Shown here one piece after another: positions 34,340 through 36,226 of a stretch of DNA of 64,000 nucleotides (within the stretch, counting starts at the first letter, position 1; each line of letters opens with the position of its first letter). Made by a program: the position numbers and the translations under genes. The notes under the pieces were generated by a model. That model had not been told where the DNA came from and ran no database searches. It saw only the letters and a program-made list of their open reading frames with translations. The stretch lies in the NCBI RefSeq assembly GCF_000027125.1, contig NC_017626.1; one strand, 5' to 3'. Origin of the DNA: Escherichia coli 042. Lineage in GTDB: Bacteria; Pseudomonadota; Gammaproteobacteria; Enterobacterales; Enterobacteriaceae.

Positions 34340-35623
34340 TTACAGACTTCTTGAAGGTTGCGCAGCTGTTACAACACGCGGTTGATCTTCCGCGGCATCT
34401 TCCAGTGCACTTAAATCACGGTCTCTCACTTCTGGCATTTTCAGCGCAGAGATTAAACCAATCACTGAATATGCCATGATCATAATGGCGATCGGATACC
34501 AGGATTCCGTCATGGTGCAGAAAATACCCGCCAGGATAGGACCAAAACCGGAAGCGATAAGACCACCAATTTCTTTAGAAATCGCCATCCGGGTAAAGCG
34601 GTTTTTACAGCCGAACATTTCTGCCATGGTAATGTTTTCCAGAGCAAATAATCCCAGCACCGCACAGTTATGAATCACAATCAGTGCAACCATAATGGTG
34701 CTCGGGGCATAGCTTTTATCTACGATGATAGAAAGCATTGGCCACGCCAGCACAATCGCAGAGGTATTCATAATAATATACGGGATCCGGCGACCTATTT
34801 TATCGGATAACCAACCAAGGAACGGAATGGTCATAAAGCCGAGAATCGAACTGATCATCAATGCATCTGTTGGAATTGCTTTGTTAAACAATAACGTCTG
34901 CACTAAATAGCCTGCAAGGAAAGTCTGAATTAAACCGGAGTTACCAGCCTGACCAAAACGCAGCCCTGTTGCCAGCCAGAAGGATTTGCTCTGGAACATG
35001 CTACCAGCAGGTGCAGGTTTTGCTGTCGGTTGGTTGCTGTCGTTAACCTTCTCAAAGACCGGGCTTTCTTTCAGATTCATACGCAACCAGATAGCAAAGA
35101 CCATCACGACAACGCTCGCCAGGAACGGTATACGCCATCCCCACGCAAGCAGTTCCTCTTTACTGAGAATGAAGAACATAAAGGCCCAGATTGCCGTTGC
35201 GCTCAAGGTTCCGCAGTTAGTCCCCATAGCAACAAATGAGGAGATAATTCCGCGCTTACCTTTTGGTGCATATTCCGCCAGCATCGTGCCGGCACCGGAA
35301 ATTTCCGCGCCTGCCCCCAGCCCCTGAATAATACGCAGCGTCACCAGCAAAATTGGCGCAAACACACCAATTTGTGCATAGGTCGGCAGCACACCAATTA
35401 AGGTAGTACAGATCCCCATCATAGTGATGGTAATAAAGAGCACTTTTTTACGCCCGATTCTGTCGCCCATTTTGCCGAAAATAAATGCTCCGACAATACG
35501 CGCCACATAACCTGCACCGTAGGTTCCCATTGCCAGAATTAACGCCATTGCCGTTGATGATTCAGGAAAAAATATTTCATGAAACACTAACGCTGCGCCG
35601 AGCGAATATAACTGGAAATCCAT
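34340..35623 (-). pseudogene. ydfJ: MFS transporter, N-terminally truncated at the prophage junction
   Basis: 427-aa ORF; the conserved MFS loop 2-3 motif (GKMGDRIGRKK) sits at residues about 50-60, implying TM1 is missing. The 5' end abuts the AT-rich prophage boundary, as with the Qin-interrupted ydfJ of K-12. Confidence 0.7.
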
Positions 35624-36226
35624 AATTCACAGGTGTTTTTTCCCATCCTGTGGTTTCCTTGGCGTTTTCTAGGTTTTTTCAGATAGTTGCATTTTTTAAA
35701 AAGCATCCTAAGTTCGATCTCAGTGTCTATCTGGGGCCTATTTCTGTCCCATATATGCCCCAAAAAAACTCCCCAACAGATAAGTAGTTTTTTCATGGAT
35801 TTATGCGTAAAATCAAGAACGGCTGGAAATCATTCAATACTCACACTATCGAAAAATTTACCAGCCAACCGCAGCACGTTCTTGCATAAGGCGTGTCTGC
35901 GTTTTTTCAACTATTCAGATACATCACTCCCATCACAGTCATTCCTCCGCATCAAAGGCATATAGGCTATATCACCTTGATATTTTTCTTTTTCAGATAA
36001 AAACTGTTATCTATGTATACTTTTAAACCCAATCCGTGTAGAGTCTCTGCATAAGATAGTTTGCAGTTGCCGCTTCAGCTTGCGCCATAAACCGCCTGAT
36101 TTTTGCTGCCACCTGCTAGCATTCCTGTATACCTGAAACGACAATGTTTATCTACGAACTTTAAAAACACCCAAGATAAAAATTGTCAACTATATCATAT
36201 ATAACACATTACTAATTCGAGGCTAT

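Follow-up and report, generated by a model that had tools for sequence, protein, structure and literature searches.

The truncated transporter gene and the adjoining prophage

The window, a 64,000-nucleotide stretch of Escherichia coli DNA, contains the chromosomal genes rspR-ydfZ-ydfI, followed by a truncated ydfJ (ydfJ') and then by part of a prophage (Table 1). Starting from the junction with ydfJ', the prophage encodes ynfT, ydfK, pinQ, tfaQ, a side tail fiber, lom, J, and the tail and head genes. Further genes include portal, terminase, nohA, ynfO, ydfO, gnsB, cspI, Rz, and lysozyme. We took the names of the prophage genes from a prophage of strain H15 that is 98% identical. As the sequence-only reading had noticed, the 5' end of ydfJ runs into AT-rich prophage DNA: the GC content drops from about 50% in ydfJ and ydfI to 31–41% across 35550–36900. 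The AT-rich stretch upstream of ydfJ' contains ynfT, ydfK, the invertase gene pinQ, and the tail-fiber assembly gene tfaQ. At 36960–38223, pinQ adjoins tfaQ and the side tail fiber gene, which is the usual layout of an invertible tail-fiber segment.

Table 1. Features at the ydfJ end of the prophage (window coordinates).
Feature	Coordinates	Strand	Basis or remark
ydfI (mannitol dehydrogenase family), chromosomal gene downstream of ydfJ	32790..34250	-	
ydfJ' (MHS-family MFS transporter; 3' 1284 nt, codons 29–455 and stop)	34340..35623	-	ORF and comparison to intact alleles
att core TTATGGATTTC, exact 11-bp repeat, ydfJ codons 28–31	35615..35625	-	junction alignment
In-frame stop (TGA) on the prophage side, two codons before the ATG	35627..35629	-	read from the sequence
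Tail-fiber-proximal part (attR side, by the lambda convention) of Qin-type prophage	35626..64000	.	runs beyond the window

Much of the prophage (25 kb, 39001–64000) is 98% identical to full-length lambda-like prophages that adjoin ydfJ' in many genomes and that encode J, tape measure, capsid, portal, and terminase proteins. A match to 80% or more of this segment is found in over 2,000 complete E. coli genomes. The prophage in the window is apparently a complete, full-length lambda-like element, not a 20.5-kb remnant as in strain K-12. Collinearity with the prophage of K_EC180 would place the int end of the window's prophage at about 63,100, and we rejected this placement: lysis and csp genes are found there instead. 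The prophage of K_EC180 has lost an internal segment; the one in the window is full-length. The deletion in K_EC180 fuses a truncated gene for the large subunit of terminase to a truncated tail-fiber gene, and it is an intermediate stage in the decay of Qin. K_EC180 (L004 42603–45903) has a ydfJ' allele that is identical to the window's.

The ydfJ' ORF encodes 427 amino acids, starting with MDFQLYSLGAALVFHEI, which correspond to residues 29–455 of YdfJ. The MFS loop 2–3 motif, GKMGDRIGRKK, is at residues 50–60 of this ORF and at residues 78–88 of intact YdfJ; the sequence-only reading had given about 50–60 instead of 80–90. When compared to the MHS family model TIGR00883, the truncated ORF scores 453.5 bits (the cut-off is 443.45) and aligns to model positions 7–400 only, while intact YdfJ scores 462.9 bits and aligns to positions 1–400. 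Similarly, in the NCBIfam models for ShiA and ProP, the alignment of the truncated ORF begins 18–25 positions later than that of intact YdfJ. In the closest genomes, PGAP labels the same ORF as "ydfJ, incomplete, missing N-terminus."

By hydropathy, the first hydrophobic stretch of intact YdfJ spans residues 13–47 or so, and it is followed by PESST, by TM2 (about 53–77), and then by the loop motif. An AlphaFold2 model, built with 19 close orthologs, has its first helix at residues 10–46; because the confidence of this model is low (mean pLDDT of 43.8), we used its secondary-structure string alone, as weak support. We also searched the sequences in the PDB for a solved homolog of YdfJ that would give the boundaries of TM1, and there were none at E ≤ 1e-10. 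With the boundaries of TM1 taken from hydropathy and this poor model, the missing 28 residues would be, roughly, the cytoplasmic tail and the first half of TM1. The sequence-only reading had proposed that the ORF lacks its first TM helix. The loss at the N-terminus is real, but about half of TM1, not the whole helix, appears to be gone: by hydropathy, 19 moderately hydrophobic residues of TM1 are left. The full 12-TM architecture, with a whole TM1, is not present in the window's YdfJ', as residues 1–28 are absent.

Intact ydfJ, the empty site, and the att core

Strain p10A has an uninterrupted rspA-rspB-ydfJ-ydfI locus, and its YdfJ has 455 amino acids (WP_000151243.1), with 28 residues (MTIEKHERSTKDLVKAAVSGWLGTALEF) ahead of MDFQLYSL.... 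Orthologs from five other genera (Citrobacter, Enterobacter, Lelliottia, Leclercia, and Superficieibacter) are 455–460 amino acids long and 83–85% identical. In these orthologs from outside E. coli, a near-invariant DLVKAAVSGWLGTALEF precedes MDFQLY, and residues 12–28 are conserved. As the sequence-only reading predicted, intact orthologs do not share the N-terminus of the window's ORF. Because the intact alleles and the orthologs have 28 more residues at the N-terminus, the truncation is real.

In prophage-free loci, rspA, rspB, ydfJ, and ydfI are on one strand, with gaps of 11–90 nt, and rspR is nearby. This arrangement suggests that rspA-rspB-ydfJ-ydfI is a single operon that is split by the prophage. 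Because the insertion parts rspA-rspB from ydfJ-ydfI, the carriers of the prophage probably lack the transporter of that cluster. Our search of the literature, within the library that could be searched, found no link between the substrate of YdfJ and L-gulonate, RspA, or RspB.

We used megablast to compare 34200–36000 of the window to 5,426 complete E. coli genomes, and found two classes of genomes. With at least 80% coverage of the query, 3,180 of the 5,426 genomes share the junction of ydfJ' and prophage or a close variant of it. In most of the remaining genomes, the match stops at position 35629 of the window; strain p10A belongs to this second class. According to a 250-nt probe that spans attB, the site is uninterrupted, with a single copy of the core, in 2009/5426 genomes (37%). 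In most of the other genomes, the probe is split in two, and both parts include probe positions 116–131/134, which is the core.

We aligned the 5' region of intact ydfJ, the junction in the window, and the intervals between rspB and int of NCTC11129 and K_EC180, and the result is a classical att layout. The match to the intact gene is lost at 35625–35629 of the window, which is where the AT-rich prophage DNA begins. The sequence of the empty site (attB) is ...GCGCTTGAATTTATGGATTTCCAGTTATATTCG; at the integrase-side junction, the relatives have ...GCGCTTGAATTTATGGATTTC followed by AAGAGTCATACG; and the junction in the window reads ...AAAAAACACCTGTGAATTATGGATTTC followed by CAGTTATATTCG. If indels are allowed, then the core extends to about 35629–35632, as CT(G)TGAATT(T)ATGGATTTC (17–19 bp). 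The exact core occurs just once in the window.

The start codon of ydfJ' (35623–35621) is the native codon for Met29 and lies within the core. The 11-bp core, which holds this ATG, is all that phage and host have in common. It had been suggested that the first 20 or so codons of the ORF might derive from the prophage. Instead, these are the native codons 29–48, and over its first 100 nt the ORF hardly varies among ten alleles, five of them truncated and five intact.

The other end of the prophage was expected to lie outside of the window, and the 5' piece of ydfJ is indeed absent from the window (we searched with two probes and allowed up to 3 mismatches). It is absent because the prophage extends past 64000; the genes found there are cspI, Rz, and lysozyme. 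In relatives, the end of the prophage is reached after another 20 kb or so, at exo-xis-int, and then come the core, ydfJ codons 31–1, the promoter region, and rspB. Specifically, between rspB and int, both NCTC11129 and K_EC180 have the ydfJ promoter, codons 1–31, the core, and then phage DNA. In both genomes, the int next to the 5' fragment of ydfJ encodes Arm-DNA-bind_2 and Phage_integrase domains, and its neighbor is the excisionase gene xis (DUF1233). We infer a far end of this kind for the window's own genome from the relatives with 98% identical prophages and from K_EC180, which has the identical ydfJ'.

The search for a core repeat that the sequence-only reading had proposed was successful: the identical TTATGGATTTC is present at the junction in the window and, in NCTC11129 and K_EC180, at the junction between rspB and int; the far junction of the window's own genome lies beyond the window. 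The junction in the window is a site-specific att site. The in-frame TGA just upstream of the core implies that there is no phage-encoded N-terminal extension of YdfJ', and we did not find a sigma-70-like site on the minus strand in the ~800 nt upstream of ydfJ'. The boundary of the prophage should be placed at 35615–35629, and ydfJ in this genome should be described as a pseudogene fragment that is interrupted by a prophage.

Integration into ydfJ and the fate of the remnant

The claim that the prophage boundary lies inside ydfJ because of integration is borne out by the 28-codon truncation, the junction, the core, and the empty site, all of which were observed directly, and an integrase is present in the relatives. 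It is almost certain that a lambda-like phage of the Qin/PPydfJ group integrated site-specifically at attB inside ydfJ. In the proposed mechanism, the tyrosine integrase of a temperate lambda-like phage would have recombined the phage with attB, whose core covers codons 28–31, and would have split ydfJ. One part, comprising the promoter and codons 1–28 with a copy of the core, would remain beside rspB, at the integrase end and outside the window. Codons 29–455 remain beside ydfI, at the tail-fiber end and within the window. The leftover 427-aa ORF begins at the native Met29, which happens to be in the core. Because its promoter and ribosome-binding site have been lost, as have the N-terminal tail and roughly half of TM1, we judge ydfJ' to be a remnant that is most likely non-functional.

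From the sequence of ydfJ' alone, decay is not evident. The ORF is open in most carriers (the cluster of 427-aa proteins has 3,723 member sequences), and although there are 35 nucleotide differences between the window's allele and an intact one, just two residues are changed. These changes are K400R and R419T (positions 428 and 447 in intact YdfJ), which fall in the C-terminal tail. Across an alignment of 10 alleles, the window's allele is 31–40 nt from all of the others. The truncated allele of K-12 is 100% identical to the intact allele of p10A (0 differences over 1284 nt), the truncated allele of 19SZHZ663Rt (SZ663) has 3 nt differences from the intact allele of a fox isolate, and the allele from O157 has the substitutions M209I and L261P. 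The truncated and intact alleles are phylogenetically interleaved (10 alleles), which implies that integration or loss of the prophage has been recent or recurrent. With such interleaving, the conservation of ydfJ' does not show selection on the truncated form.

Could YdfJ' (residues 29–455) still be expressed, by read-through from the prophage or from a weak internal promoter, and retain some transport? The intact ORF in most carriers, the small number of amino acid changes, and the 19 moderately hydrophobic residues that are left of TM1 would all fit. However, ydfJ' lacks its promoter and ribosome-binding site, has an in-frame stop just upstream, and has no promoter-like site that we could find. 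Also, the conserved GWLGTALEF half of TM1 is absent, the O157 allele carries L261P, and, given the interleaving of truncated and intact alleles, conservation can reflect recent or recurrent integration instead of selection. So, we consider continued expression with some transport to be unlikely. We give slightly less credence again to the idea that YdfJ' is made by read-through or cryptic transcription with its transport activity retained or modified. In that case, the strains with a prophage at this site, ~60% of E. coli, would have a functionally altered transporter, not a dead one.

A different explanation for the truncation is that the 5' end of ydfJ was removed by a deletion, or by illegitimate or homologous recombination, and not by site-specific integration. 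Internal deletions and rearrangements are common in Qin-type prophages, as illustrated by the terminase/tail-fiber fusion in K_EC180 and the IS2 element in intQ of K-12, and inversions between prophages at ompW and ydfJ have been reported in the literature. But in the relatives, the 5' piece of ydfJ was not deleted: it persists next to the integrase gene, along with the same core; the breakpoint is identical across thousands of genomes and for different phages; and attP has been demonstrated experimentally (PMC8112680). Loss of the 5' end by such routes is very improbable.

A further reading takes the 427-aa ORF as the complete gene, never interrupted, and the 455-aa form as an annotation artefact or a lineage-specific extension; it has next to no chance of being correct. 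MG1655 RefSeq does list ydfJ (b1543) as an ordinary 427-aa CDS, and the ORF does exceed the TIGR00883 cut-off. But every ortholog outside E. coli has 455–460 amino acids with residues 12–28 conserved, the intact form aligns to the ShiA and ProP models from 18–25 positions further upstream, and the DNA match to the empty site ends precisely at the core. The junction alignment and the N-termini of the orthologs refute this reading.

A different lambdoid prophage is present at the identical ydfJ junction in the O157:H7 strain ECP19-2498 (L007 3924–6900), and it carries DinI and three DUF1076 (nleG-type) effector genes. Distinct phages at one position imply that attB is reused by a family of phages.

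Qin and other prophages within genes

The junction of ydfJ and Qin is already published and annotated: it is a textbook case, seen here with a full-length Qin-type prophage. Ramisetty and Sudhakari (2019) described ydfJ as "lacking 28 codons." ydfJ is the site of Qin in strains W, K-12, B, and Crooks (PMC3032704), and strain SE11 has a 46.8-kb lambda-like prophage between ydfJ and rspB (PMC2608844). Nakamura et al. (2021) defined an att of 18/19 bp for the PPydfJ phages with the help of an attP obtained by PCR, which they reported for PPydfJ-R of the O26:H11 strain 11368 (PMC8112680, S7 Fig).

Qin of K-12 MG1655 resembles the window's prophage in its flanks (ydfI-ydfJ' and rspB), its junction and core, and its ynfT-ydfK-pinQ-tfaQ genes, and the two are 97.3% identical over a 1.8-kb junction region. 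In contrast, the K-12 remnant lacks head and tail genes and its int is disrupted by IS2, while the window's prophage spans at least 28 kb and includes J, tape measure, capsid, portal, and terminase genes. The PPydfJ prophages of STEC and EPEC (PMC8112680) also use the ydfJ site and a short att (18/19 bp there, and an exact core of 11 bp here). They differ in having loci for T3SS effectors (nleG, nleC) proximal to ydfJ, as O157:H7 also shows, where the window's phage has ynfT/ydfK/pinQ.

Like the phage at ydfJ, e14 and phage 21 (in icd) and Rac (in ttcA) were inserted into a protein-coding gene by a tyrosine integrase, with a short core (PMC6379469). e14 and phage 21 bring a substitute 3' end for icd, so the gene stays functional, and Rac alters the N-terminus of TtcA. 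Unlike these elements, the phage at ydfJ supplies no replacement N-terminus (the TGA is two codons upstream), which is why ydfJ is truncated.

A prophage at the ydfJ site is ordinary, being found in about 60–63% of complete E. coli genomes, and lambdoid phages, among them effector-carrying ones in STEC, are documented to use it as a hot spot. The truncation is of little importance beyond the correct annotation of ydfJ and of the prophage boundary. In MG1655 RefSeq, "cryptic prophage Qin" (1632277..1652745) overlaps the first 9 nt of ydfJ. The orphan 5' piece of ydfJ is annotated in MG1655 as ynfP, whose product is MTIEKHERSTKDLVKAAVSGWLGTALEFMDF followed by KSHAC. These 36 amino acids (L006 23729–23839) correspond to 31 native codons and 5 phage codons, and ynfP is listed among small proteins in a table of sORFs (PMC6001520).
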